From: Geobacter sulfurreducens PCA
GTDB lineage: Bacteria; Desulfobacterota; Desulfuromonadia; Geobacterales; Geobacteraceae
DNA length: 32,000 nt
Assembly: GCF_000007985.2 (NCBI RefSeq)
Contig: NC_002939.5
Span: 3,690,001 to 3,722,000, forward strand
Reading direction: 5' to 3'
A program made the translations under genes and the position numbers. The notes beneath the pieces are model-generated. The model searched no databases. It was not told the origin of the DNA and saw only the letters and a list, made by a program, of their open reading frames with translations. Below, piece after piece: positions 300 through 15,559 of this stretch. How positions within the stretch are numbered: the stretch's first letter is position 1; the number at the start of each line of letters is the position of its first letter.

Positions 300-1361
300 A
301 TGAATGTCGAACAAATGAAGGCGGTCCTGCGAGAGATCCTCGCCAGGACCGACCTGACGCCGTGCATCGTCGGCCACCGGGGGGTCGGCAAAACCGCCGG
401 CATCATACAGCTCTGCCGGGAGACCGGCCGCCGTTATCAACCTATTCGCCTTGGCCAGATGGAAGTGGGGGACCTGGTGGGCATCCCCTATCGCGAAAAG
501 GACGTCATGTACTGGTCGCGCCCCTGCTGGTGGCCCGACGACGACGCTCCGGACACGGTCATCCACTGCGATGAACTGAACCGGGCCCAGCAGGAGGACA
601 CCCTCCAGGCCATCTTCCAGTTCGTGGAGCCCCCCTCCGAGGGAAACCGCCGTGCGCTCCACACCCACACTCTCCACCCCCGGCACAAGGTTGTGGTAAC
701 TATCAACCCGCCTGACGGCACCTACCAGGTGGCCACCCTCGACCGGGCTCTCATCGACCGGATGGTGATGCTCTACGTGGAGACCGACTACCAGTGCTGG
801 GCGCGCTACGCCGCGGCCAGGGATCTGGACCAGGGAGTGCGCCGGTTCCTGGCGGCCAACACCTCTCTGCTCGCCAGCCAGGGGAGCCCCCTGGAGATGG
901 TCGCCGAGCCCACCGAGCGGGGCTGGGAAATGGTGAGCATCCTGCGCCGGCAGTGCCGTTTTCCCCGGGAACTGGAGATGGAGATCTACGCCGGCATTAT
1001 CGGCAAAGAGGCTGCCATCGCCTTTCTGCGCTGGTGTGCCGACCATGCGGCCCGGCCCGTAACCGCCGGCGAGGTGCTGAATCACTGGGACCACGTGGCT
1101 GAGAAGCTCAGGGCCCAGCGGGACGACCAGCAGGCAGTCACCATGAGCGACATCGTCACCACTCTTGCGGGCAACGGGGCACTGGCGCCAGAACAGGAAG
1201 AAAACCTCGTCCGCTACATCGACATTCTCCCCCGCGACATGCGCTTCGGCCTCGTCAAGTCGTTGCTGCGCATTCCCCCCGTGGCCATGGCCCTCTCCCG
1301 CGACAAGTACGACGGGGTAGTATTAGACGCCATCCAGGCCATCAGCGCCGAGGCCCGATGA
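300..1361 (+). CDS. AAA_5-type (MoxR/McrB/dynein-related) P-loop ATPase with an unrecognised ~170-aa C-terminal domain
   Basis: The ORF 288..1361 opens with TTG and the first ATG is at 300 (MNVEQMK...). Walker A GHRGVGKT, Walker B VIHCDELNRA, LDRALIDRM sensor/Arg region. The stop overlaps the next start (ATGA at 1358-1361). Confidence 0.8.
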   Translation: MNVEQMKAVLREILARTDLTPCIVGHRGVGKTAGIIQLCRETGRRYQPIRLGQMEVGDLVGIPYREKDVMYWSRPCWWPDDDAPDTVIHCDELNRAQQEDTLQAIFQFVEPPSEGNRRALHTHTLHPRHKVVVTINPPDGTYQVATLDRALIDRMVMLYVETDYQCWARYAAARDLDQGVRRFLAANTSLLASQGSPLEMVAEPTERGWEMVSILRRQCRFPRELEMEIYAGIIGKEAAIAFLRWCADHAARPVTAGEVLNHWDHVAEKLRAQRDDQQAVTMSDIVTTLAGNGALAPEQEENLVRYIDILPRDMRFGLVKSLLRIPPVAMALSRDKYDGVVLDAIQAISAEAR

Positions 1362-2677
1362 CAGCAACCGCCCACCGGAAAACTCTCCCCAACGGCCTGC
1401 GTGTGGTGGCGGTGGAAATGCCCCACCTCCACAGTACCGAGATCGCGGTCTACGTACGCGTTGGCGGTCGCGACGACAGCCGCGCCACGGCCGGCCTCGC
1501 TCATTTCCTGGAGCACATGCTCTTTCGGGGCACCGCCGAGCACCCGACCAACCTGGAGCTGGAAGCCGCTTTCGAGGCCATCGGCGGCTGCGTAAATGCC
1601 GCGACCGACGCCGAATCCACCAGCTACTATTCCCGCGTCCACCCCGATCACGTGGCCGAAGGGCTGCGCCTGTTGGCAGCCATGGTCCTCACGCCGACCT
1701 TTCCGGGCATTGATATCGAAAAGCGGATCATCACCGAGGAAGCCCTGGAAGACATCAACGACCACGGCGACGACATCAACCCCGACAACCTCTCCAGCAG
1801 CATGCTCTGGCCCGACCACCCCCTCGGCATGCCGACCATCGGCTACCTCGACACCATCTCGGCTATCACCGAGGCCGACCTGAAGGGTCACATGACCCGC
1901 TACTACGTGCCCACCAACGCAGTGGTCGTAGCCGCCGGACGGGTCAGGGCCGACGACGTATTCGGGGCCGTCGCCGACGCTTTCGGCACCTGGGCGGGAC
2001 CGTCCGCCCCCGGCCGGCTGCCGCCGCCGTCAAACCAGGACGAACCCCGCTGCCTCTTTGTGAAGGACGCAGACAGCCAGGTGGATCTCCAGATAACCTT
2101 TCGCGGATTCTCCCGCCCGGACCCGCAGCTGGCGGCAAGCCGGCTCCTCCGGCGCGTTCTGGCGGGAGGCGGCTGTTCGCGCCTTCACCTGAACCTGCGG
2201 GAACGGCTCGGCATCGTCTACTCCGTGGACGCTCAGGTTGCCGCCTACGATGAGACCGGCTGCTTTTCCATCGAACTGTCCACTGCACCGGAAAATCTGC
2301 TCACTGCCGTGGAGGAAGTCCTTGGGGAGACCCGGAAACTCGCGGCGGAGCCGGTTGGCGCCGAGGAGCTGCGCCGGGTTCGGCAGGGATATTTCTTCGA
2401 CCTTGCCTACAGCGAAGATTCCACCTTTGAAATGCAGGTGCGTTACGGGTGGGGCGAACTAATGGGAATGGTCAAGGGGATCGACGAGGAACGGGCCGAG
2501 GTTGAGGCCGTGGATGAGGGCACCCTGCAGGCCGTCGCACGGCGGCTTTTTGCTCCGGCAGCCCTCAACCTCGTGGCCGTCGGGCCGGTCACCGCGACTG
2601 CAAAGCGGCGGATTGAGCAGTTGCTGCGGCGCTACGCCAAGGAATTTCCTACCTCATCTCAACCACCCGGGCCTTGA
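1358..2677 (+). CDS. M16 (pitrilysin/insulinase) family zinc peptidase, apparently cytoplasmic
   Basis: HFLEHMLFRG (HxxEH inverted zincin motif) near the N-terminus. 439 aa, a typical two-lobed M16 size. GAGG 6 nt upstream. No signal-peptide-like N-terminus (MTATAHRKTLPNGLRVVAVEM). Confidence 0.88.
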   Translation: MTATAHRKTLPNGLRVVAVEMPHLHSTEIAVYVRVGGRDDSRATAGLAHFLEHMLFRGTAEHPTNLELEAAFEAIGGCVNAATDAESTSYYSRVHPDHVAEGLRLLAAMVLTPTFPGIDIEKRIITEEALEDINDHGDDINPDNLSSSMLWPDHPLGMPTIGYLDTISAITEADLKGHMTRYYVPTNAVVVAAGRVRADDVFGAVADAFGTWAGPSAPGRLPPPSNQDEPRCLFVKDADSQVDLQITFRGFSRPDPQLAASRLLRRVLAGGGCSRLHLNLRERLGIVYSVDAQVAAYDETGCFSIELSTAPENLLTAVEEVLGETRKLAAEPVGAEELRRVRQGYFFDLAYSEDSTFEMQVRYGWGELMGMVKGIDEERAEVEAVDEGTLQAVARRLFAPAALNLVAVGPVTATAKRRIEQLLRRYAKEFPTSSQPPGP

Positions 2678-4130
2678 TCCTGCCGACCACGGCGGCAATG
2701 GCCGCCAGCCGGTCGGGGCTTTCCCCCTCAACCAGTTTCACATGCGAGGCATCGGCAGGAACCTGATCAAAAGTGGGGTCAACCTGCTGCCAGGCGCCAT
2801 CCACAAAAACCTCAGCCCAACTGTGATAGAGCAGGCCCTTTCCGTCCAGGGAGACAAGCCCTGATACGAAACGGGCGGGAATGCCCACAGCACGGGCCAG
2901 GGAGACGAAAAGGCGTGCATGCGACTGGCAGTTTCCCGTTCGCGAGGCAAGCGTGTCGAGGGGAGATGGGGCATCAGTGACACTGTCTTTCACGTAGCTG
3001 CTCACCCAGCTCACCAGTTTTACCAGCCGGCCCCGGGCGGAGACATCATCCCCGATAACCCGCCGGGCCGTAGCCACGATCTCGGGATGATCCGCCGGCA
3101 GGAGGTCGGTAGGGGCCAACCAGGGGGCCAGGGCAGCTCCAGCAACCGCAGGTGCGCTATCTCCACCCGCCGTAGCGGACGGCACCACCGGCTCCACCGT
3201 GACCTGCACGCTTCCGTCGCCCAGACGCCGCACGCTCTGCCCTCCCCCATCGGGTAGCGACATCTCCCGGGGGATTCCCTCAAGAGTGATCACGAGGCTC
3301 TTGAGTTCCCGGACCCGCTCAAGGGGAGGATTCAACCGGACAAGACTGAAGTCGAGGATCATGTCACGCCGGGCCAGGGTGGCTTCGGCCAGGAATCGCC
3401 GCCCTGCGTCGCCGGCCTCGGCCACGGTCTCCACCAGGCCGTCACGCACCGACTCGCGGAGGGTGTTCCCATCCCGGTCCACCCAGACTTCATTGTCGAC
3501 CATGGGGTAGAGGTCGTTCACCATGTGGATGGCCTGTATCCCGCCTGCCGCAGTATCCGCCCCCTGCACGGTGATGGCGACGCTTTTCAGGGAAACGCCC
3601 TCCACATCGAGCATGGTTACCTTGTAGCGCTTCCCCGCAACGGCCCCCTTCATGAGCGGATAGAGGTTCAGGGCCGGCGGCGGGTATACTGCCCCCTTGG
3701 TCTTGAGGAGCTTCTCCTTCCGGCTGCCTCCCCGTTCGAGCCGTACCTTCACTCCCGCCGGCGTCGCTTCACCCTCCAGTCGCTGGGGAGTACCGTCAAG
3801 CACCTGCTCCACCCGGAAGGAGCGGAGGGCGAGGTCACGTCCCACCCGATAGACCTCGCGGGAAGCCGCCTCGCGCGAGAAGCCGAGGACAACCATCCTG
3901 ACGCTCCCTTCCACTATCATCTCGTAGCCGTCGTCCACCGAGGTTGTCACCTGCCGGCCGAAACCGGTCCGTTCCCCCCCCAGGAAGATACCGAACCACC
4001 GCTCACCCAGGGGCGGTTTCGCGAGAGGAGGTACGGAAAGCCGGGAATCCCCGGCCCGAGCGATGGACTGAAGAAAAAACGTGACGAGGAAAACGACTAT
4101 GATCCTGACCAGGGTACGGGGCATATGCAT
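2649..4130 (-). CDS. Secreted/periplasmic transglutaminase-like cysteine protease-fold protein
   Basis: The ORF extends to 4325, but a signal-peptide-like start MHMPRTLVRIIVVFLVTFFLQSIARA begins at ATG 4130. C-terminal transglutaminase core: GNCQSHARLF (Cys), LLYHSWAEV (His), QQVDPT (Asp). Confidence 0.8.
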   Translation of the reverse strand: MHMPRTLVRIIVVFLVTFFLQSIARAGDSRLSVPPLAKPPLGERWFGIFLGGERTGFGRQVTTSVDDGYEMIVEGSVRMVVLGFSREAASREVYRVGRDLALRSFRVEQVLDGTPQRLEGEATPAGVKVRLERGGSRKEKLLKTKGAVYPPPALNLYPLMKGAVAGKRYKVTMLDVEGVSLKSVAITVQGADTAAGGIQAIHMVNDLYPMVDNEVWVDRDGNTLRESVRDGLVETVAEAGDAGRRFLAEATLARRDMILDFSLVRLNPPLERVRELKSLVITLEGIPREMSLPDGGGQSVRRLGDGSVQVTVEPVVPSATAGGDSAPAVAGAALAPWLAPTDLLPADHPEIVATARRVIGDDVSARGRLVKLVSWVSSYVKDSVTDAPSPLDTLASRTGNCQSHARLFVSLARAVGIPARFVSGLVSLDGKGLLYHSWAEVFVDGAWQQVDPTFDQVPADASHVKLVEGESPDRLAAIAAVVGRIKARVVEMR

Positions 4131-4206
4131 GGCGTAGTGGGCTCGAAACGGCGGTGAGAACGGCGCGCCGTCAGACTCTCGTCGAACGGCACGCAATGGT
4201 GGATAT

Positions 4207-4419
4207 CTATTCCGTGAAAATCGGCTCCTTGGCCGCTTCAGGGCGCTTCTCGCTCTGGGGTACGGAACAGCGGTTCTCGGGGGCAGGGTTGTCCGGCTCG
4301 CTCCTGTCCAGTTCCTGCCGCACAAGCACGGCGGCGTGATCTAGCAGGCTCTTTCTGCCGCTGTCCGACAGCCGCCGGAATTCGATGATGAGTTTATGCT
4401 CGTCCAGGCTCAGGTCCAT
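4207..4419 (-). CDS. Small hypothetical protein (70 aa), probably co-transcribed with the transglutaminase-like gene
   Basis: Internal ATG at 4419 (MDLSLDEHKLIIEFRRLSDSGRKSLLDHAAVLV...) is preceded by GGAGAACCGAC. The upstream part of ORF 4207..4548 looks non-coding. No family recognised. Confidence 0.45.
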   Translation of the reverse strand: MDLSLDEHKLIIEFRRLSDSGRKSLLDHAAVLVRQELDRSEPDNPAPENRCSVPQSEKRPEAAKEPIFTE

Positions 4420-4468
4420 GGTCGGTTCTCCTTCGGGGATGGGATTCCCCTCCACGGGGGTTGTGGAG

Positions 4469-4497
4469 GTTATACCACAATCGCAGGGGGGTCGCAA
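4469..4497 (-). promoter_or_regulatory. Candidate sigma-70 promoter for the small ORF/transglutaminase operon
   Basis: Minus strand: TTGCGA (4497-4492), 17-bp spacer, extended -10 TGG-TATAAC (4474-4469). Confidence 0.4.
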
Positions 4498-4590
4498 TCG
4501 GGCCGGACCGGTCGGCAAAGGTACGCCGGCCCACAAGAGACTACACATGAAAAGCTCTTCAAATACAGTAAATTATCTTCTCCTATTTAC

Positions 4591-4619
4591 TTGCAGAGGC
4601 TGGATGATCGCGCTATAGT
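4591..4619 (+). promoter_or_regulatory. Candidate sigma-70 promoter driving a short non-coding transcript or leader
   Basis: TTGCAG (4591-4596), exactly 17-bp spacer, TATAGT (4614-4619), in an AT-rich context. Confidence 0.5.
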
Positions 4620-4625
4620 TTACTT

Positions 4626-4704
4626 AGAAAAAGAGTTGCGAGGGTCGAGAGATCCTCATTATGCCCTAGTCGACTTTCCCTCCTAGTCGCTAGGGTGTTT
4701 TTTT
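4626..4704 (+). ncRNA. Predicted ~80-nt sRNA or terminator-containing leader upstream of the sigma-54 activator gene
   Basis: Bounded by the promoter at 4591-4619 and the intrinsic terminator at 4664-4704. The only ORF inside is ATG-CCC-TAG. The terminator loop UUUCCCUCCUA contains an anti-Shine-Dalgarno CCUCCU. Confidence 0.35.
4664..4704 (+). terminator. Rho-independent terminator (plus-strand specific)
   Basis: CCCTAG(T)CGAC pairs with GTCGCTAGGG: 10 bp with one bulged T and an 11-nt loop. It is followed by TG and seven T (4698-4704). On the other strand the run precedes the stem, so it is not bidirectional. Confidence 0.6.
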
Positions 4705-4808
4705 GCCGCCAACCCACTGCGCCACATCTGGCACAGCGTATACTTTATGTGTCACTTATTGCACACCACCCCCTCAATAGTGTATGGTTCACATGTACAG
4801 GAGGCGAC

Positions 4809-7100
4809 ATGGAGCCGATAATTACCGACAAGGAAAAGTGCCGCAAGTGCTACTGCTGCGTCAGGAGCTGCCCGGTCAAGGCAATCAAGGTTGAAAAACG
4901 CTACACCGAAATTATCTTTGACCGCTGCATCGGCTGCGGCAACTGTCTGAGCAATTGCCCCCAACGGGCAAAGATGGTGGCCGACAAAGTGGGTGTTACC
5001 GAGAGTCTTCTCACCTCGGAAGACAAGGTAATCGCCGTGCTCGGATCATCATTTCCAGCCTTTTTTCACAATGTTGCACCGGGCCAGCTTGTGGCCGGCC
5101 TCAAGCGGATCGGCTTCCGTGAAGTCCACGAAGGGGCCTACGGTGCTGAACTGATCGCTGACGATTACGCCCGTATTACCGGCGATAATGACCGGACCTA
5201 CATTTCATCCCACTGCCCGGCCATCGTTGACCTGATCGAGCGACACTACCCGAAACTGCTCAGAAACCTGGTGCCCGTCGTTTCTCCCATGATCGCCATG
5301 GGCCGCTATCTCAAGGAAGTTCTGGGCCCCAAGACCAAGGTGGTCTACATCAGCTCCTGCATTGCCGCAAAGTTCGAAACCCAGATGACCGAAACGCGGG
5401 GAGCCATCGACATTGTTCTCACCTATCGGGAACTGGAGGGCATCTTCCGCAGCCGGCAGATTTCCCTCCCGGCCCTCGATGCGCTTCCCTTCGACGGGCT
5501 TGCGCCCACGGTGGGACGACTTTTCCCCATCAACGAGGGAACCTTCCGGTCGTTCTCCATGTCGGCGGACCCCCTTGACACTGAAATAGTCTCCGCCTGC
5601 GGCGAAGTAAACGTCATGGGCATCATCAGAGACTTGGCTGCAGGCAGGATCGCCCCCCGCTTTGCCGATCTGCGCTTCTGCTATGACGGGTGCATCGGCG
5701 GTCCCGGCCGCAATAGCGAACTGACCGAATTCTACCGCCGCAACCTGATCATTAACCATTACAAGCAGGACATCCCCTACGAGACGGCTCCGCACTATCT
5801 CTCCTCCCGTGAGCAGACCGGCCTGGACCGCTCTTTTGCCAGCAAGCACGCGCGCCTCGAGTCGCCAAAAACAAATGATATCAAGAAAATACTGCAAGCC
5901 ACCAGCAAGTACTCGGTCAAGGACGAACTCAATTGCCGCGCCTGCGGCTATCGCACCTGCCGCGAGTATGCCGTGGCGGTCTACCAGGGCTTGGCCGAGA
6001 TCGAGATGTGCCTTCCCTACAACCTCCAGCAACTGGAAGAGGATCGTGGTCGCCTGATCCAGAAGTACGAGCTCGCCCGTCGAGAACTCGACCGCGAGTA
6101 TACTGACGAGTTCATCGTCGGCAACGACCGCAAGACCTTGGAAGTACTTGATCTCATCAAGCAAGTGGGGCCGACGCCGACGACGGTTCTGATCCGGGGC
6201 GAGTCGGGAACCGGCAAGGAACTCACCGCCCGAGCCATTCATCGCTTCAGCAAGCGCAACGATAAGCCCCTGGTGACCGTGAACTGCACCACTATCACCG
6301 ACTCCCTTCTGGAGAGCGAACTCTTCGGACACAAGCGGGGGGCCTTCACCGGTGCCATCGCCGAGAAAAAGGGGCTGTTCGAGGCCGCCGACGGCGGCAC
6401 CATTTTCCTGGATGAAATCGGCGATATCACGCCGAAATTGCAGGCAGAGCTCCTGCGTGTCCTCGACATGGGCGAGGTGCGTCCCGTTGGGGGTACGACC
6501 GCCCGCAAGGTCGACGTACGCCTCATTGCCGCAACCAACCGGAACCTCGAAGAAGGAGTACGGGAGGGCTGGTTCCGCGAGGATCTGTATTATCGCCTCA
6601 ACGTTTTCACCATTACCATGCCGCCTCTGCGCAACCGGGTGGAGTCGATTCCGATCCTGGCGCACCACTTCATGGAAAAAGCCAGCACCAAACTGAACAA
6701 ACGGCTCTCAGCCATCGAAGAGCGGGCCGTCATCGCCCTCACCAAGTACCCTTGGCCCGGCAATATCCGCGAGATGCAGAACGTCATCGAACGGGCTGCG
6801 GTTCTTGCCCACGACGATGTTATCCACCTGGAGAACCTCCCCCTGGCCCTTTCGGAAAATCTGGCAGGAAGCCCGACCGCCGACCTGGATATCCGGGCTT
6901 CCTTCCGCGCGGAGCGCGAAAGGCATGTGGTCAAGCTCGAGAAGAAGCTGATCCAGCGCTATCTGGCCGAGGCAAACGGCAATGTGAGCCGTGCCGCGCG
7001 GCTCGCCAACATTCCCCGCCGAACCTTTTACCGCCTGCTCGACAAGTATCGCCTCAAAGACAAAGAGGTGCGGGATATGCCGCAGGGGGACAGACAATAG
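4809..7100 (+). CDS. Sigma-54-dependent transcriptional activator (EBP) with an N-terminal 2x[4Fe-4S] ferredoxin and [FeFe]-hydrogenase-like sensory domain
   Basis: ATG 4809 is preceded by AGGAGG (4799-4804). Two CxxCxxCxxxCP motifs lie at 4839-4961. H-cluster-like motifs: SSHCP (5205-5219), SSCIAAKFE (5352-5378), CYDGCIGGPG (5679-5708). Cx2Cx4Cx16C at 5934-6011. AAA+ module: GESGTGKE, ESELFGH, GAFTGA (6369-6386). C-terminal Fis-type HTH (NVSRAARLANIPRRTFYRLL). Confidence 0.92.
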   Translation: MEPIITDKEKCRKCYCCVRSCPVKAIKVEKRYTEIIFDRCIGCGNCLSNCPQRAKMVADKVGVTESLLTSEDKVIAVLGSSFPAFFHNVAPGQLVAGLKRIGFREVHEGAYGAELIADDYARITGDNDRTYISSHCPAIVDLIERHYPKLLRNLVPVVSPMIAMGRYLKEVLGPKTKVVYISSCIAAKFETQMTETRGAIDIVLTYRELEGIFRSRQISLPALDALPFDGLAPTVGRLFPINEGTFRSFSMSADPLDTEIVSACGEVNVMGIIRDLAAGRIAPRFADLRFCYDGCIGGPGRNSELTEFYRRNLIINHYKQDIPYETAPHYLSSREQTGLDRSFASKHARLESPKTNDIKKILQATSKYSVKDELNCRACGYRTCREYAVAVYQGLAEIEMCLPYNLQQLEEDRGRLIQKYELARRELDREYTDEFIVGNDRKTLEVLDLIKQVGPTPTTVLIRGESGTGKELTARAIHRFSKRNDKPLVTVNCTTITDSLLESELFGHKRGAFTGAIAEKKGLFEAADGGTIFLDEIGDITPKLQAELLRVLDMGEVRPVGGTTARKVDVRLIAATNRNLEEGVREGWFREDLYYRLNVFTITMPPLRNRVESIPILAHHFMEKASTKLNKRLSAIEERAVIALTKYPWPGNIREMQNVIERAAVLAHDDVIHLENLPLALSENLAGSPTADLDIRASFRAERERHVVKLEKKLIQRYLAEANGNVSRAARLANIPRRTFYRLLDKYRLKDKEVRDMPQGDRQ

Positions 7101-7120
7101 TGTGCACTTTTGGCCAAGCC

Positions 7121-7138
7121 TGTGCCAACCGTGACACA
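7121..7138. promoter_or_regulatory. Candidate upstream activator sequence (EBP binding site)
   Basis: Inverted repeat TGTGCCA-ACCG-TGACACA with arms matching 6/7. A further TGTGCAC half-site lies at 7101-7107. The repeat is centred about 115 bp upstream of the -12 element, with an AT-rich tract (about 7150-7225) in between. Confidence 0.35.
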
Positions 7139-7231
7139 AGGATGTATACGAAGATTTTTATTAGATAATTTTTATATTTAACTTAATAATGATTTCGACA
7201 GGTTATAATTTTTTTCTCCATCCTTCGGATC

Positions 7232-7247
7232 TGGCATGTATATGGCA
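7232..7247 (+). promoter_or_regulatory. Sigma-54 (RpoN) -24/-12 promoter
   Basis: TGGCATGTATATGGCA compared with the consensus TGGCACG-N4-TTGCW. GG at 7233-7234 and GC at 7245-7246 have the canonical spacing. It lies about 60 nt upstream of the small ORF start. Confidence 0.75.
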
Positions 7248-7305
7248 TAGTAACTACGCAAAATCGATATCAACGATGCCAATCAATACACGGAGGATAC
7301 CAGAC

Positions 7306-7494
7306 ATGGGAAGAATGAGAGAAAATCCGCGGTACAACGTTATCTCCATGAGGATCAGCGACGAAGAGCGTGATCGCCTGCAGGCAATCATGGAAGCCAC
7401 TCACAAGAGCGTGTCGGACATCATGAGGGAGGCTATGGAGCTTTTCTCCGTCCAACTCGAACAGTCTCAACCCGGAGACCAGAAGGCCGCCTGA
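7306..7494 (+). CDS. hgtR: 62-aa ribbon-helix-helix-like transcriptional regulator; locus matches my recollection of HgtR
   Basis: ATG 7306 is preceded by GGAGGA. MGRMRENPRYNVISMRISDEERDRLQAIMEATHKSVSDIMREAMELF shows a strand-helix-helix pattern. It sits downstream of a sigma-54 promoter and next to an EBP. The symbol is assigned from remembered locus context, not from a search. Confidence 0.65.
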   Translation: MGRMRENPRYNVISMRISDEERDRLQAIMEATHKSVSDIMREAMELFSVQLEQSQPGDQKAA

Positions 7495-7501
7495 TTTTCA
7501 C

Positions 7502-7535
7502 AAAAAAATGGGGCACCCCTCACCAGGGGTGCCCC
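7502..7535 (-). terminator. Rho-independent terminator for cysS
   Basis: GGGGCACCCCT / AGGGGTGCCCC is an 11-bp stem with a 4-nt loop (7510-7535). On the minus strand it is followed by A-TTTTTTT-G (complement of 7501-7509). Confidence 0.7.
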
Positions 7536-7554
7536 GCACATCGTCGGCACATGA

Positions 7555-7599
7555 AGCGAACCGGGCGGAATCAATCCGCGGCGATTCGCTTTTTTGTTT
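7555..7599 (+). terminator. Rho-independent terminator for the small regulator gene
   Basis: Outer stem AGCGAA / TTCGCT encloses inner stem GCGGA / TCCGC. It is followed on the plus strand by TTTTTTGTTT (7590-7599). Confidence 0.5.
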
Positions 7600-7607
7600 C
7601 AGCTCAT

Positions 7608-9053
7608 CTATTTCACCTTCCAGGTTGTTCCCTGGGCTGAGTCGAGGAGCAAAATCCCCTGGGCCGCCAAGGTATCGCGAATCTCGTCGGCACGACGAAA
7701 ATCCCGGGCCTTGCGGGCTGCATTTCGCTCCTCGATCAGGCGCTCGATCTCAGCGGCTTCAATGGGTAGAGCCGCCGCCTTGCGGCTTTTGAGCCGTTCC
7801 ACGAATGCGCCCGGCTCCGAGGTGAACAGGCCAAGCACCGCTCCCACCCGATCGATTGCCTCCCGCGCGCTCGCAAGTACGGCCCGGTCGATCTCACCCT
7901 CTGCGAGCACCCGGTTGACCGCCCGCACCAGATCAAAGACATAACCCAACGCCTGGGCTGTGTTAAAATCATCGTCCATGGCCTCACGGAAGCGTGTCGG
8001 TAGTCCGGCCGCCTTTTCGGCCAGCTCCTCGTCGATCCGCCCCGCCCCCGTGCCGTCTGCGGCCACTGCCTCGTCGATGCCGGCCAGGGCATTGTAGATC
8101 CGTTCCAGACCAGCTGCGGCCTCCTTCAGGTTCTGATCCGAAAAATCAATGGGGGAACGGTAGTGGGCCGACAGGAGGAAGAACCGGAGCACCTCGGCGT
8201 CATAGCTCTCCAGCACTTCCTTGATGGTGAAGAAGTTGCCGAGGGACTTGCTCATCTTCTCGGCATTGATGTTCACGAAGCCGTTGTGAATCCAGTAGCG
8301 GGCAAAGGGCTTGCCGTTGGCCGCCTCGGACTGGGCGATCTCGTTCTCGTGGTGAGGAAATACCAGATCCTTGCCGCCGCCGTGAATATCGAACGTCTCG
8401 CCCAGGTACTTCATGCTCATGGCTGAACACTCGATGTGCCAGCCGGGACGTCCCTGGCCCCAGGGGGAATCCCAGTAGGGCTCACCCGGCTTCGACCCTT
8501 TCCAGAGGGCAAAGTCCATGGGGTGACGCTTTTTCTCTCCCACCTCGATGCGTGCGCCGGCCTGCATTTCCTCAAGATTGCGCTTGGAGAGCTTCAGGTA
8601 CTGATCGAAGGCCTCAACGCTGAAGTAGACGTCTCCGTCGGCGGCATAGGCAAAACCCTTTGCCACCAAACGCTCGATGACCTGGATCATCTCGGCGATG
8701 TGCTCGGTGGCCTTGGGTTGATAGGTCGGCAGATCGAGCCCCAGAGCCGCCATATCCCGGTCGAACTCGGCAATGAAACGCTCGGAGATGACGTTGAACG
8801 GCACCCCTTCCTTGTTGGCCCGATTGATGATCTTGTCGTCTACGTCGGTATAGTTGCGGACATAGGTCACCTCGTAGCCTGCATGGCGGAGGTAGCGGTA
8901 GATCATGTCGAAGACCACGTTGGCCCGGGCGTGGCCGATGTGGCAATGATCGTAGACCGTGACGCCGCAGACATACATCTTCACCCGGCCCGGCTCAAGT
9001 GTGACGAAATCTTCCTTTGTGCCCGAAAGCGTGTTGTAGACGCGCAATGCCAT
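7608..9053 (-). CDS. cysS: Cysteine--tRNA ligase
   Basis: [16 protein letters not shown] start at ATG 9053. HIGH motif (CHIGHAR), KMSKS motif, 481 aa. Confidence 0.95.
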
Positions 9054-9085
9054 GGAAAGCCCTTTCAGATTCTTAATTCTACGTA

Positions 9086-10750
9086 TTACTTCTTGGCCCA
9101 CGAATCCCGCAGCGTCACGGTCCGGTTGAAGACCGGCGCGCCGGGCTGCGAATCGACGCGGTCAGCGCAGAAGTATCCCTGACGCTCGAACTGGAAGCGA
9201 TCCTCAGGTCGGGCCAGAGCCAGGGAGGGCTCCAGCCGGCAATCCCGAACGATTTCCACCGACAGGGGATTGAGAAGCTCCTTCCAGTCGTCGCCCGAGG
9301 GGTTGGGAACGGTGAAGAGCCGGTCGTAAAGCCTGACCTCGGCAGTCACGGCATGGGTCGCCGAGACCCAGTGAATGACCCCCTTGACCTTACGCTCCGA
9401 GCCGGGAAGGCCGCTGCGGGTCTCCGGATCATAGGTGCAGCGTACCGTGGTCACGTTCCCCTCGCCATCACGCTCCACCCCGGTGCATTTCACGATGTAC
9501 GCGCCCCGCAGGCGGATTTCTTCGCCCGGCGAAAGACGCTTGAACCCCTTGGGAGGGACCTCCATGAAATCGTCGCGCTCGATGAAAAGCTCCCGGCCAA
9601 AGGGGACCGACCGGCTCCCCAGGTCGGGACGCTGGGGGTGATAGGCAATGGTGAGATCCTCCGTCGCCCCCTCGGGATAGTTTTCGATCACCAGCCGAAG
9701 GGGCCGCAAGACCGCCATGACCCGGGGCGCGCGCTCGTTCAGATCCTGGCGTACGCTCTCTTCCAGAATGCTCATGTCGATCCAGCTGTCGCTGCGTCCC
9801 ACGCCGATGGTGTCGCAGAAATTCCGAATCGCCTCGGGCGTGAAGCCCCGGCGGCGGATGCCCATGATGGTCGGCATGCGCGGGTCATCCCAGCCGGTCA
9901 CATCGCCGTCCTTAACCAACTGGAGGAGCTTGCGCTTGCTCATGACCGCATAGGTGAGATTCAGGCGGGCGAACTCGTACTGGCGCGGCCGGTTCGGCAC
10001 CGGCAGGTTGTCCAGAAACCACTCGTAAAGCGGCTTATGATCTTCGAACTCCAGGGTGCAGATAGAGTGGGTGATCCCCTCAATGGCGTCCGACTGGCCA
10101 TGGGCGTAGTCATACATCGGGTAGATACACCACTTGTCGCCGGCATGGGGGTGCGGGGCATGGAGAATCCGGTACATGACCGGATCCCGCAGGTTGATGT
10201 TGGGAGAGGCCATGTCGATCCTGGCCCTTAACACCTTTGCCCCATCCGGGAACTCGCCGGCCCGCATCCGGCGGAACAGATCAAGGTTTTCCTCTGCAGT
10301 GCGGCTGCGGGAGGGACTCTCCTTGCCCGGTTCGGTGAGGGTGCCGCGGTAGGAGCGGATCTCATCGGCCGTCAGGTCGTCTACGTAGGCCTTGCCCTGT
10401 ATGATGAGGGATTCGGCCCACTGGTAGAGCTGCTCGAAGTAGTCGGAGGCGTAATAGCAATGCTCCCCCCACTCGAAGCCGAGCCAGCGGACGCTCTCCT
10501 TGATCGACTCGATGTACTCGGTCTCCTCTTTCACCGGGTTGGTGTCGTCGAAGCGGAGATGGCAGCGTCCGCCGAAATCCCGCGCCAGCCCGAAGTTAAG
10601 GCAGATGGATTTGGCGTGGCCGATGTGGAGATAGCCATTGGGCTCGGGCGGGAAACGGGTGACGATAGTCCGGTGCTTGCCGCTTTTGAGATCATCCTCG
10701 ACGATGGTTCGCAGGAAGTTGGTGACGTGGGCTGGTTCGGTGGTCGACAT
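9086..10750 (-). CDS. glnS: Glutamine--tRNA ligase
   Basis: ATG 10750 is preceded by GAGGA (the longer ORF opens with TTG at 10768). [14 protein letters not shown] and VMSKRKL motifs. Class I GlnRS length. Confidence 0.95.
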
Positions 10751-13806: not shown

Positions 13807-14514
13807 CTAGATATCAAGTTGCAGGGCAGCAGCCTGTTCGGCAGGTTTGAGAGGAGGTGCGCCGTCGGTTTCCTGCATGAGGACCCGGCCTCCGTACTCA
13901 GCGTTCTTGCGGACAAGGGTTTCGGCCATGTCGGCATTGCGGGACTGAAATGCCTCAATGATCCGTTCGTGCTCCTTCACGGAAATATGCATCCGACCGG
14001 GCAGGCTGAGGGAGGCGTAGCGAAGCCGCTGAAACTTCCGGACAAGGTTGGTGACGAGCTCCGAGAGCTTCTCGTTATCGGCCGCCCGAAGGAACAGCTC
14101 ATGAAAATCGTTGTGAATCCGGAAAAAGTGGCGTACGTCACCCTCATCCGCCAGGTGGCGCAATTTCTCGTTGATGGTTCGAAGCTTCTCGATTTCCTTG
14201 TCCGTGAGCTTCTCACAGGCGCGGCGGGCCGCATACCCCTCAAGAATGCTCTTGATGGCGTAAAATTCCTCCACATCACGGGGAGAGAAAAACGTGACAA
14301 CCGCTCCTTTGCGCGGGATCACGGTCAGATATCCCTCCGACTCCAGCTGGCGGAACGCCTCCCGGATCGGTGTGCGGCTGATGCCGAACCGTTCGGCGAG
14401 ATCAGGCTCGGCCACTTTTTCTCCCGGCTTGAGGGCGCCGGTCATGATGGCATCGCGAATGGTTTCGAGGATCTTTTCCCTGAGGGTGAGGTGCTTCTCC
14501 ATCGGTTTTTTCAT
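13807..14514 (-). CDS. GntR family transcriptional regulator with a FadR/FCD-type C-terminal domain
   Basis: N-terminal winged HTH (LAERFGISRTPIREAFRQLESEGYL) and a helical C-terminal domain. GGAG 9 nt upstream of ATG 14514. Confidence 0.88.
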   Translation of the reverse strand: MKKPMEKHLTLREKILETIRDAIMTGALKPGEKVAEPDLAERFGISRTPIREAFRQLESEGYLTVIPRKGAVVTFFSPRDVEEFYAIKSILEGYAARRACEKLTDKEIEKLRTINEKLRHLADEGDVRHFFRIHNDFHELFLRAADNEKLSELVTNLVRKFQRLRYASLSLPGRMHISVKEHERIIEAFQSRNADMAETLVRKNAEYGGRVLMQETDGAPPLKPAEQAAALQLDI

Positions 14515-14540: not shown

Positions 14541-14568
14541 ATTGTATACAGTATACAGGGATTGTCAA
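14541..14568 (-). promoter_or_regulatory. Sigma-70 promoter of the GntR gene with an embedded palindromic operator
   Basis: Minus strand: perfect TTGACA (14568-14563), 16-bp spacer, TACAAT (14546-14541). The 15-nt palindrome TGTATAC-A-GTATACA (14543-14557) fills the spacer and -10 region and fits the GT-N-AC type GntR operator. Confidence 0.6.
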
Positions 14569-14788: not shown

Positions 14789-15559
14789 ATGTCCGATCGC
14801 ATCCACGCCCATGTCCCCTACCCGATGCTGGCCGACAACCTGACGGCCGTCGCCGCCCGTGGGATCAATCCCGAAGTCCACTTTTCGGGTGAGGCCCTGG
14901 ACTCCCTTGTCCCGGAAAAACTGATAGCCGTTGCCGACACCCTGAACGCCACCGGGCTGCGCTCCACCATTCATGCTCCCTTCGTGGACCTGAACCCAGG
15001 CTCGGCCGAACGCCTCATCCGCGAGGCTACCCGTCATCGGCTCAACCAGGTGATTGACGCCGCGGCAATCCTCAGGCCCGACGTGATCGTCTTCCATCCC
15101 GGCTATGACCGCTGGCGCTACGGCGAGAACCAGGATATCTGGCTCGCCCACAGTATTGAGACGTGGCGGAGAGTGCTGGAGCGGACCGAACCCATTGGCT
15201 GTACAGTCGCAGTGGAAAACATCTTCGAGGAGGAGCCTTCAACCCTGCGAGCCCTGCTGGAAGAGATCGACCATCCCCGCTTCTGCCACTGCTTCGACGT
15301 GGGGCACTGGAATCTGTTTCACACGGTGGGGATGGAGGAATGGTTCGATGCCATGGGACGCTTCGTGGCGGAGGCCCACATCCACGACAATTTCGGCACC
15401 CGCGATGACCATCTGCCGCTGGGCGAAGGGGCCATCGATTTTGATCTCTTCTTTTCCCTCATGGCCCGGCACGCCCCCCAGGCCGTCTGGACCATCGAGG
15501 CCCACTGCCCGGCAGCTCTGGACAGGGCACTCGTTGCCATCGAGCGCTACCGGAAATGA
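14789..15559 (+). CDS. Xylose isomerase-like TIM barrel / AP endonuclease family 2 protein (sugar-phosphate isomerase/epimerase-like)
   Basis: 256 aa with metal-ligand-like motifs IHAPF, AVENIFEE, FDVGHWN, HIHDN. The specific function cannot be assigned from sequence alone. Confidence 0.75.
   Translation: MSDRIHAHVPYPMLADNLTAVAARGINPEVHFSGEALDSLVPEKLIAVADTLNATGLRSTIHAPFVDLNPGSAERLIREATRHRLNQVIDAAAILRPDVIVFHPGYDRWRYGENQDIWLAHSIETWRRVLERTEPIGCTVAVENIFEEEPSTLRALLEEIDHPRFCHCFDVGHWNLFHTVGMEEWFDAMGRFVAEAHIHDNFGTRDDHLPLGEGAIDFDLFFSLMARHAPQAVWTIEAHCPAALDRALVAIERYRK

Follow-up and report, generated by a model that had tools for sequence, protein, structure and literature searches.

In a 32,000-nucleotide window of the Geobacter sulfurreducens PCA chromosome (NC_002939.5, positions 3,690,001 to 3,722,000; all coordinates below count from the first letter of this window), we followed up a compact cassette at positions 4,809 to 7,494, in which a putative hydrogen-sensing transcriptional activator, GSU3363, is encoded immediately upstream of the small repressor gene hgtR (GSU3364). 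We consider it likely that the two genes form a two-tier transcriptional cascade, leading from GSU3363 to an RpoN (sigma-54) promoter, from there to HgtR, and from HgtR to GTATAC operators. The last two steps of this cascade are well supported, both by the literature and by an operator within the window; the first two are strongly suggested by conserved synteny and conserved DNA.

The identity of the locus follows from exact-sequence look-ups. The 763-aa product matches AAR36753.1 (locus tag GSU3363) residue for residue, a record named 'iron-sulfur cluster-binding sigma-54-dependent transcriptional regulator, FehydlgC and FeS domain-containing', and the 62-aa product likewise matches AAR36754.2, named 'Hydrogen-dependent growth transcriptional repressor', that is, GSU3364 or HgtR of G. 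sulfurreducens. The locus is therefore that of Ueki and Lovley (2010, PMC2817479), and the first-pass annotation of this DNA, made from the letters alone, had named HgtR correctly. The 2010 study described HgtR as a protein of 62 aa with a predicted ribbon-helix-helix (RHH) fold, found hgtR expression to be higher on H2, published deletion and overexpression phenotypes, and assigned the start of hgtR to an RpoN -24/-12 promoter by primer extension, with a terminator after the gene. HgtR footprints were obtained on the gltA, atpG, nuoA and gntR promoters; these and other tricarboxylic acid (TCA) cycle and energy genes are repressed by HgtR, which switches off the TCA cycle when cells grow on hydrogen and is needed for that growth (PMC2817479). 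The upstream enhancer-binding protein with its iron-only-hydrogenase domain was said to be one that 'possibly senses hydrogen', and the activator was treated only as 'data not shown' (PMC2817479).

The GSU3363-hgtR cassette is thus already published, including the hypothesis on its activator. On this point the first-pass annotation was half right: it stated that the small repressor is described and overlooked that the whole hypothesis, hydrogen-sensing activator included, is in print as well. Its further remark that the sensing mechanism of the activator is undescribed holds in the searchable literature, where no paper names GSU3363 and later papers merely cite HgtR. The same literature yielded nothing specific on sigma-54 activators linked to sensory [FeFe] hydrogenases beyond one domain listing, in which Nie et al. 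(2019, PMC6615313) just name Fer4, Fe_hyd_lg_C and FeS as regulatory domains that clostridial activators can carry. Nor does this literature connect GSU3363 with sensory [FeFe] hydrogenases.

The activator is encoded on the plus strand (4809..7100, 763 aa, with GGAGG at 4800-4804). According to Pfam, its N-terminal half opens with two [4Fe-4S] ferredoxin motifs (nt 4839-4961; CRKCYCCVRSCP at residues 11-22 and CIGCGNCLSNCP at residues 40-51, both Fer4), continues with an [FeFe]-hydrogenase domain, or H-domain (nt 5028-5705; Fe_hyd_lg_C, residues 74-299, E=1.3e-45), and then carries a Cx2Cx4Cx16C cluster motif (nt 5928-6017; PF04060 FeS, 'putative Fe-S cluster', residues 374-403). There follow, on the same strand, an AAA+ module (nt 6114-6872; Sigma54_activat, residues 436-602, E=8e-69, plus AAA_lid_14) and a Fis-type helix-turn-helix (HTH) domain (nt 6936-7049; HTH_8, residues 710-747). 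A motif search located GESGTGKE at residues 464-471, ESELFG at 502-507 and GAFTGA at 511-516, such that the Walker A motif, the GAFTGA loop and the C-terminal DNA-binding HTH of a bacterial enhancer-binding protein are all in place. The best NCBIfam similarities, to NifA, PrdR and NorR, are confined to the AAA+ and HTH regions, and none reaches its equivalog cut-off.

What sets this protein apart is its sensor. A sequence search of the PDB with the sensor returned only [FeFe] hydrogenases, and when an AlphaFold model of it was submitted to Foldseek, the top matches were again all [FeFe] hydrogenases (E~1e-13). With a mean predicted local distance difference test (pLDDT) score of 65.6, and values under 50 in the ferredoxin part and near the L3 loop, this predicted model is good enough for the hydrogenase fold, not for pocket geometry. 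The first-pass annotation had read the 763-aa coding sequence as a fusion of two ferredoxin motifs and a hydrogenase-like domain with a sigma-54 module and a Fis-type HTH, and had proposed profile searches as a check; once these were run, the N-terminal domain did match hydrogenase families in Pfam, the PDB and Foldseek, and the remaining parts were found as described. That parts list was accurate as far as it went, while the Cx2Cx4Cx16C motif as a third Fe-S motif, an atoC RNA motif and the conserved dyads described below had escaped it.

The architecture of the sensor is that of a particular class of enzymes. Group C and D [FeFe] hydrogenases, termed 'putative sensory' by Land et al. (2020), combine two N-terminal [4Fe-4S] motifs and an H-domain with a C-terminal Cx2Cx4Cx16C motif and the loss of the proton-relay residue Cys299; their sensory role is still called putative, physiological evidence being lacking. 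A motif comparison with this definition found all four marks in GSU3363, including the C-terminal motif C376-x2-C379-x4-C384-x16-C401 and the H-domain cluster cysteines Cys136/184/291/295. Among 121 Geobacteraceae homologues of GSU3363 with 68-98% identity, 16/16 cluster cysteines are invariant. Within the L1 motif, which reads SSHCP in place of TSCCP, the Cys299 position is occupied by a His (His135) in 120/121 homologues. The position of Met353 is a Ser (Ser182), again in 120/121, which is the typical group D substitution (Land et al., 2020), and the position of Met497 is an Arg throughout (Arg289, 121/121). All three pocket residues, His135, Ser182 and Arg289, are thus conserved above the H-domain mean of 68%. 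Pfam detected no PAS domain in GSU3363; the AAA+ module stands where group C has its PAS domain.

Further evidence for a hydrogenase connection came from relatives outside the Geobacteraceae, where a homologue scan with one genome per species recovered full-length homologues in Firmicutes and uncultured Deltaproteobacteria, at 38-46% identity and with the domain order of GSU3363. The statement of 2010 that the activator type was unknown in other bacteria (PMC2817479) no longer holds. In two uncultured Deltaproteobacteria (L006 and L009, 44-46% identity), three same-strand genes lie immediately 5' of the activator gene. For L006 this trio is hydG, hydE and hydF, which encode [FeFe]-hydrogenase maturases and pass their NCBIfam equivalog cut-offs (454/312, 308/255 and 416/326 bits, respectively). 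Together with the activator gene, they make up one abutting same-strand gene string (504-6265), and no apparent H-cluster client other than the activator is encoded within the 10-kb L006 locus. A molybdopterin oxidoreductase gene lies convergent to this string, downstream of it. At L009 the open reading frames (ORFs) at 501-6259 are laid out as in L006, a likeness known from layout alone.

In the Firmicutes, the linkage is to the hydrogenase itself. Behind the activator genes of Fuchsiella, Frackibacter and Mahella lie hydC-hydB-hydA, which encode a trimeric [FeFe] hydrogenase, and behind that of Thermovenabulum lies the start of such an operon. The spacer 3' of the activator gene contains a canonical sigma-54 promoter at L013 (TGGCA-N6-TTGCA, TGGCATAAAACTTGCA), a near-consensus one at L015 (TGGAATAAAAATTGCA) and a further one at L057 (TGGCACAATACTTGCA), and palindromes accompany the sigma-54 promoters in the Firmicute downstream spacers. 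At L046 and L057, the analysis reached as far as the spacer. At L063, hydCBA follows the activator gene, but the spacer has no sigma-54 match. One activator (L055) contains a PAS domain, placed after the FeS motif and before the AAA+ module. These distant relatives carry the motif Gly-Pro-Cys-x-Ala-Lys-Lys and thereby retain Lys358. Given this retention together with the hydGEF and hydCBA linkage, the family as a whole looks, from its sequences and gene neighborhoods, like one of H2-sensing activators of hydrogenase genes. Two side observations may be recorded here. Fuchsiella alkaliacetigena has two activator copies, one of which (L012) is followed by a sigma-54 promoter, TGGCATGAAAATTGCA at 6570-6585, and then by a formate/nitrite transporter gene (6581-7504), not by hydrogenase genes. 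In two uncultured proteobacterial loci, cobalamin riboswitch aptamers lie a few kb 3' of the activator gene (L007, 10116-10253; L011, 6540-6646).

A number of observations weigh against GSU3363 as a hydrogen-sensing activator of hgtR, and they start with the pocket itself. In Geobacteraceae, Ala, Gly or Ser takes the place of Lys358 in the alignment, and a Lys is found one residue along, at 359, the canonical motif being MPCxxKxxE. Likewise, the Met353-Pro354 pair is replaced by Ser-Ser in this clade. In standard enzymes, Lys358 hydrogen-bonds a cyanide ligand of the H-cluster and is needed to hold the di-iron subcluster. Its loss therefore argues against a canonical H-cluster, and the four H-domain cysteines are proof of no more than the [4Fe-4S] (cubane) portion of the H-cluster site; the tight conservation of the cationic pocket, on the other hand, argues that something is still bound there. 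The genomic context is a second concern. A gene scan of the 32-kb window found no hydE, hydF or hydG and no hydrogenase genes, and the three maturase genes were likewise not found within 10 kb of the module in Geobacter sp. OR-1 and Geomonas, a survey of neighborhoods and not of whole genomes. A query with HydF from L006 gave mostly Firmicute proteins and no Geobacter-named protein among the best 120 matches, a result that cannot show absence. For G. sulfurreducens, the literature describes only [NiFe] hydrogenases. Physiology adds two further points, namely that G. metallireducens is unable to grow on H2, yet has retained an HgtR homologue, and that a bccR mutant on Fe(III), for which no addition of H2 is reported, shows hgtR raised over 1000-fold. 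Finally, the regulatory link between GSU3363 and hgtR is a predicted one, no experiment joining the two having been found in the searchable literature.

Several of these points suit a different explanation, in which the di-iron subcluster has been lost, the [4Fe-4S] clusters have been kept, and GSU3363 is not an H2 sensor but a cytoplasmic redox sensor that responds to how far a pool linked to ferredoxin, NAD(P)H or quinones is reduced. Hydrogen would then induce hgtR indirectly, its oxidation by the periplasmic Hyb [NiFe] hydrogenase over-reducing the cell. We regard such a sensor as possible, if on the doubtful side. It would account for the clade-wide changes of Lys358 to Ala, Gly or Ser, of Met353-Pro354 to Ser-Ser and of Cys299 to His, and it fits the failure to find maturase genes near the module in three genera, the description of G. 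sulfurreducens with [NiFe] hydrogenases only and the retention of the module by a non-grower on H2. A redox signal would also fit the strong rise of hgtR when low-potential respiration is blocked, as in the bccR mutant, and the fact that HgtR activity is seen on acetate/fumarate too (PMC2817479). However, the pocket is under tight purifying selection, with its Arg at Met497 and near-invariant His at Cys299, which suggests that a ligand is still held, and relatives at 45% identity share an operon with hydGEF. Moreover, since over-reduced cells can make H2, the bccR result is compatible with H2 sensing, and the absence of maturase genes extends to gene neighborhoods, not to whole genomes.

Weighing these arguments, we see a real, non-canonical H-cluster in GSU3363 as a close call that falls just short of even; it is favored by the architecture, the conserved pocket, the hydGEF and hydCBA linkage of the relatives and the induction of hgtR by H2. 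The fuller proposal, which we put forward only tentatively, is that GSU3363 and its relatives are one-polypeptide H2-responsive transcription factors, and that those of the Geobacteraceae would hold a non-canonical H-cluster, with the Arg at the Met497 position standing in for Lys358, the His replacing the proton-relay Cys and the signal leaving via the C-terminal [4Fe-4S] cluster. The mirror reading, a hydrogenase fossil that retained its clusters but not its di-iron site and was turned into a redox sensor, would be nearly as unusual.

Turning to the target of the activator, hgtR (7306..7494, plus strand) is preceded by a ribosome-binding site (RBS, GGAGG at 7292-7296) and by the -24/-12 promoter TGGCATGTATATGGCA at 7232-7247 on the same strand, 132 bp after the activator stop codon. 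The GG and GC of this element stand at sigma-54 spacing and give a predicted start near 7258. As a pattern alone, the promoter is not significant: there is 1 match per 32 kb, as compared to 0.61 expected, and at least one match occurred in 40/100 shuffles. What makes it credible is not pattern rarity but the published primer extension together with its conservation in six Geobacter loci (the window and L001-L005), in whose aligned spacers the columns of TGGCA-N7-TGGC are invariant. The promoter that the first-pass annotation had placed about 130 bp downstream of the activator gene, and the RBS and 62-aa ORF that it had listed behind it, are thus all borne out.

Comparison of the same six loci revealed four conserved elements in the spacer between activator gene and hgtR, that is, a TGTGCACTTTTGGCCA block right after the stop codon, a dyad, the TGGCA...TGGC core and the RBS. 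In the window, the first two make up a putative upstream activating sequence (7101..7138), composed of the block TGTGCACTTTTGGCCAA at 7101-7117 and the perfect 18-bp dyad TGTGCCAACCGTGACACA at 7121-7138, which lies about 120-157 bp 5' of the predicted start and is nearly invariant across the loci. The dyad itself, at about -120 to -137 from the sigma-54 start, is found 185-193 bp before the hgtR ATG in 6/6 loci. Two further 18-bp copies stand on the other side of the activator gene, between the atoC RNA motif and the start codon: dyad A (TGCGCCACATCTGGCACA, 4718..4735), 91 bp 5' of the start codon, and dyad B (TGTGTCACTTATTGCACA, 4748..4765), 30 bp after dyad A. The position of dyad A is kept, with at most two mismatches, in 5/6 loci (the window, L001, L003, L004 and L005; L002 falls below threshold), and the A-B spacing of 30 bp is kept in the window, L001, L003 and L005. 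Overall, one or two activator-side dyads are present 48-131 bp before the activator ATG. Unlike the promoter pattern, the dyad consensus TGTGYCA-N4-TGRCACA is enriched, with 3 matches in the window versus 0.21 expected, a count reached in 0/100 shuffles.

The 18-bp dyads were also considered as HgtR operators, and rejected as such. The HgtR operator, GTATAC-N-GTATAC, bears no relation to the dyad, and the gntR probe used for footprinting contains an exact copy of this operator.

Around 120-137 bp from a sigma-54 start is a normal enhancer distance, and 18-bp dyads of the form TGT-N12-ACA resemble the sites of activators with a Fis-type HTH such as NifA and NtrC. Since the dyad lies at such a distance and is not the HgtR operator, it is most simply read as the predicted binding site of the activator itself, and dyads A and B probably serve autoregulation of the activator gene. 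That the dyads might instead be operators of some other regulator, for example HgtR or a nearby GntR-family protein, seems unlikely to us. A site near the start codon of the activator gene would suit a repressor, and the GSU3363 sites are predicted from sequence only; yet the HgtR operator is a different element, the hgtR-side dyad sits where an enhancer is expected, and its TGT-N12-ACA form resembles that of Fis-type HTH sites.

The same comparison bears on whether the two genes are functionally joined. It could be argued that the adjacency of activator gene and hgtR is coincidental, with another sigma-54 activator driving hgtR and GSU3363 serving other promoters. Indeed, sigma-54 activators are able to act at a distance, deletion of bccR alters hgtR, and a published genetic or biochemical link between GSU3363 and hgtR was not found in the searchable literature. 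We nevertheless judge a coincidence to be very improbable. Across Geobacter, Geomonas and related genera, the gene order and the spacing are kept, as are the promoter and a dyad that stands 185-193 bp before the ATG; the same dyad occurs on both sides of the activator gene, and the Firmicute relatives repeat the arrangement of an activator gene followed by a sigma-54 promoter and a target operon. In all Geobacteraceae loci examined, hgtR directly follows the activator gene, an adjacency seen only in this family, and the order activator-hgtR-cysS-glnS-ispF-ispD-selA-gntR is kept across genera.

Other signals in these regions are less certain. By inspection, we found no correctly spaced sigma-54 promoter 5' of the activator gene in 4700-4808; TATACT at 4738-4743, between the dyads, is a candidate sigma-70 -10 box, which is only a guess. 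No integration host factor (IHF) consensus was seen by eye in the AT-rich spacer at 7150-7225. A lone GTATAC hexamer, half an HgtR operator, is present at 7144..7149; it is kept in 4/6 loci and alone is not significant. Lone half-operators also occur at 4738 (GTATAC) and at 7238 (GTATAT, inside the spacer of the sigma-54 promoter), neither of them conserved. Such hexamers in the regulatory regions of the cassette could mean feedback by HgtR, although they are too few to be significant.

For the HgtR protein, an RHH fold is predicted, with profile and structure signals at the limit of detection. Its Pfam score for RHH_1, 20.4 bits, falls just below the cut-off of 20.5, DUF6290 scores 22.3 bits, and an AlphaFold (AF2) model with a pLDDT of 79.7 predicts an extended N-terminus followed by helices at residues 19-32 and 36-54. 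The best Foldseek matches were RHH antitoxins with template modeling (TM) scores of 0.6-0.75, but E>1. Within the family, 29 columns are invariant in 32 homologues. Downstream of the gene, two tandem hairpins on the plus strand (7510..7600; RNA fold -48.7 kcal/mol, z=-4.9) can be told apart: that at 7553-7592 is followed by a plus-strand U-tract and fits the hgtR terminator, whereas the strong 11-bp hairpin at 7510-7535, with a minus-strand T-run, looks like the terminator of the convergent cysS gene (7608..9101, minus strand). The published marks of hgtR at the locus, with the RpoN promoter at 7232-7247 and the hairpins at 7510-7600, are consistent with a monocistronic unit.

The window also contains a target of the cassette's output. 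From the primers published in PMC2817479, the HgtR operator can be reconstructed as GTATAC-A-GTATAC, and an exact copy (GTATACAGTATAC, 14544..14556) lies in the promoter of a GntR/FCD regulator gene (13807..14514, minus strand; Pfam GntR and FCD), 30 nt 5' of that gene. The same 13-mer forms the dyad within gltA primer -2T (PMC2817479). As the published gntR probe primers (PMC2817479) map to 14444-14466 and 14849-14868, with GTATACAGTATAC inside the probe, the GntR/FCD gene is the HgtR target of that study. Its place in the gene order makes it probably GSU3370, which encodes a protein that likewise bound to the gltA promoter.

Upstream of the activator gene, the plus strand encodes an atoC RNA motif (Rfam RF01733, 4612..4702), detected by cmscan at 98 bits versus a gathering threshold of 50 (E=1e-17). 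It is also found directly 5' of the activator gene in L001-L005 (59-95 bits) and is absent from the distant loci. The motif comprises two hairpins, the second of which (4681-4695), with the T-run behind it, resembles an intrinsic terminator and has the loop CUUUCCCUCCUAG. This loop contains CCCUCC, complementary to Shine-Dalgarno sequences. Weinberg et al. (2010) described the atoC motif as a probable cis-regulatory RNA of Deltaproteobacteria, located before genes with 'oxidoreductase' and 'response regulator' domains, and their seed includes a G. sulfurreducens sequence, listed with 3694623 as its starting coordinate (NC_002939.4/3694623-). Between the atoC RNA and a transglutaminase-like gene (2649..4325, minus strand), there is a 113-aa ORF on the minus strand (4207-4548) that has no Pfam match.

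Taken together, the cascade that we favor would run as follows. GSU3363 would be a cytoplasmic one-component sigma-54 activator with a complete sensory [FeFe]-hydrogenase module, the sensor presumably being joined to the AAA+ domain directly, by a short coiled linker. Hydrogen, or a strongly reduced state resulting from it, may shift the redox state of the H-domain site and the adjacent C-terminal cluster, and this change would free the AAA+ domain to assemble into an active hexamer. The activator is predicted, from the conserved DNA, to bind the TGTGYCA-N4-TGRCACA dyads, with that at 7121-7138 and the block at 7101-7117 acting as the hgtR enhancer and the two at 4718-4765 probably autoregulating the gene of the activator. 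ATP hydrolysis would then remodel RpoN-RNA polymerase at the published promoter (7232-7247) to give a monocistronic hgtR message. Bound to GTATAC-N-GTATAC operators, HgtR finally represses gltA, nuoA, atpG, gntR and other TCA and energy genes, a repression that the literature has shown and that is required for growth on H2.

The locus bears on bioremediation and current production by Geobacter. Because GSU3363 couples a sensory-type module directly to an H2-responsive transcriptional output, the sensory role becomes experimentally approachable; if our proposal is true, this would be the first system for in vivo tests of signaling by 'putative sensory' [FeFe] hydrogenases, with hgtR as a clean H2-inducible read-out in a tractable organism. 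To this, the comparative data add a candidate binding site, specific pocket residues and a function that the orphan atoC RNA motif might have. The interest that remains beyond the published work thus lies in the link to sensory [FeFe] hydrogenases, in the predicted binding sites and pocket residues, and in the atoC RNA.

How, then, does the cassette compare with known systems? The locus of Ueki and Lovley (2010, PMC2817479) is the same, its sequence without any difference; the Cx2Cx4Cx16C motif and the substituted pocket residues, like the dyads and the atoC RNA, are described here and not in that study. The activators of Firmicutes and uncultured Deltaproteobacteria, whose domain combination was noted by Nie et al. 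(2019, PMC6615313), share the domain order of GSU3363 and, in Firmicutes, the downstream sigma-54 promoter; they differ in keeping Lys358, in having hydGEF or hydCBA as neighbors, and in lacking a nearby hgtR or atoC RNA.

With group C and D [FeFe] hydrogenases, represented by TmHydS of Thermotoga maritima and TamHydS of Thermoanaerobacter mathranii, GSU3363 has in common the two N-terminal [4Fe-4S] motifs, the four cluster cysteines of the H-domain, the missing Cys299 and the C-terminal Cx2Cx4Cx16C motif, and with group D also the hydroxyl residue at Met353. In contrast, where group C carries a PAS domain and group D lacks a fused output, GSU3363 contains a sigma-54 AAA+ motor and an HTH in the same polypeptide. 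In addition, the Geobacteraceae clade is without Lys358 and has an invariant Arg at Met497, the cofactor content of GSU3363 is putative, and no [FeFe] hydrogenase operon is near GSU3363 in the 32-kb window. Among sigma-54 activators, NorR, NifA and FhlA likewise place an N-terminal sensor before an AAA+ module and a Fis-type HTH, yet GSU3363 has a multi-cluster hydrogenase module as its sensor in place of a GAF domain. Finally, as already drawn in PMC2817479, the proposed role of GSU3363 parallels that of HoxBC/HoxJ-HoxA of Ralstonia eutropha, where a hydrogenase-type H2 receptor controls genes. That receptor is of the [NiFe] type and works through separate proteins and two-component signaling, whereas a single polypeptide is proposed to do everything in GSU3363; and while the output in Ralstonia eutropha is hydrogenase genes, that of the GSU3363 cassette is a repressor of central metabolism.

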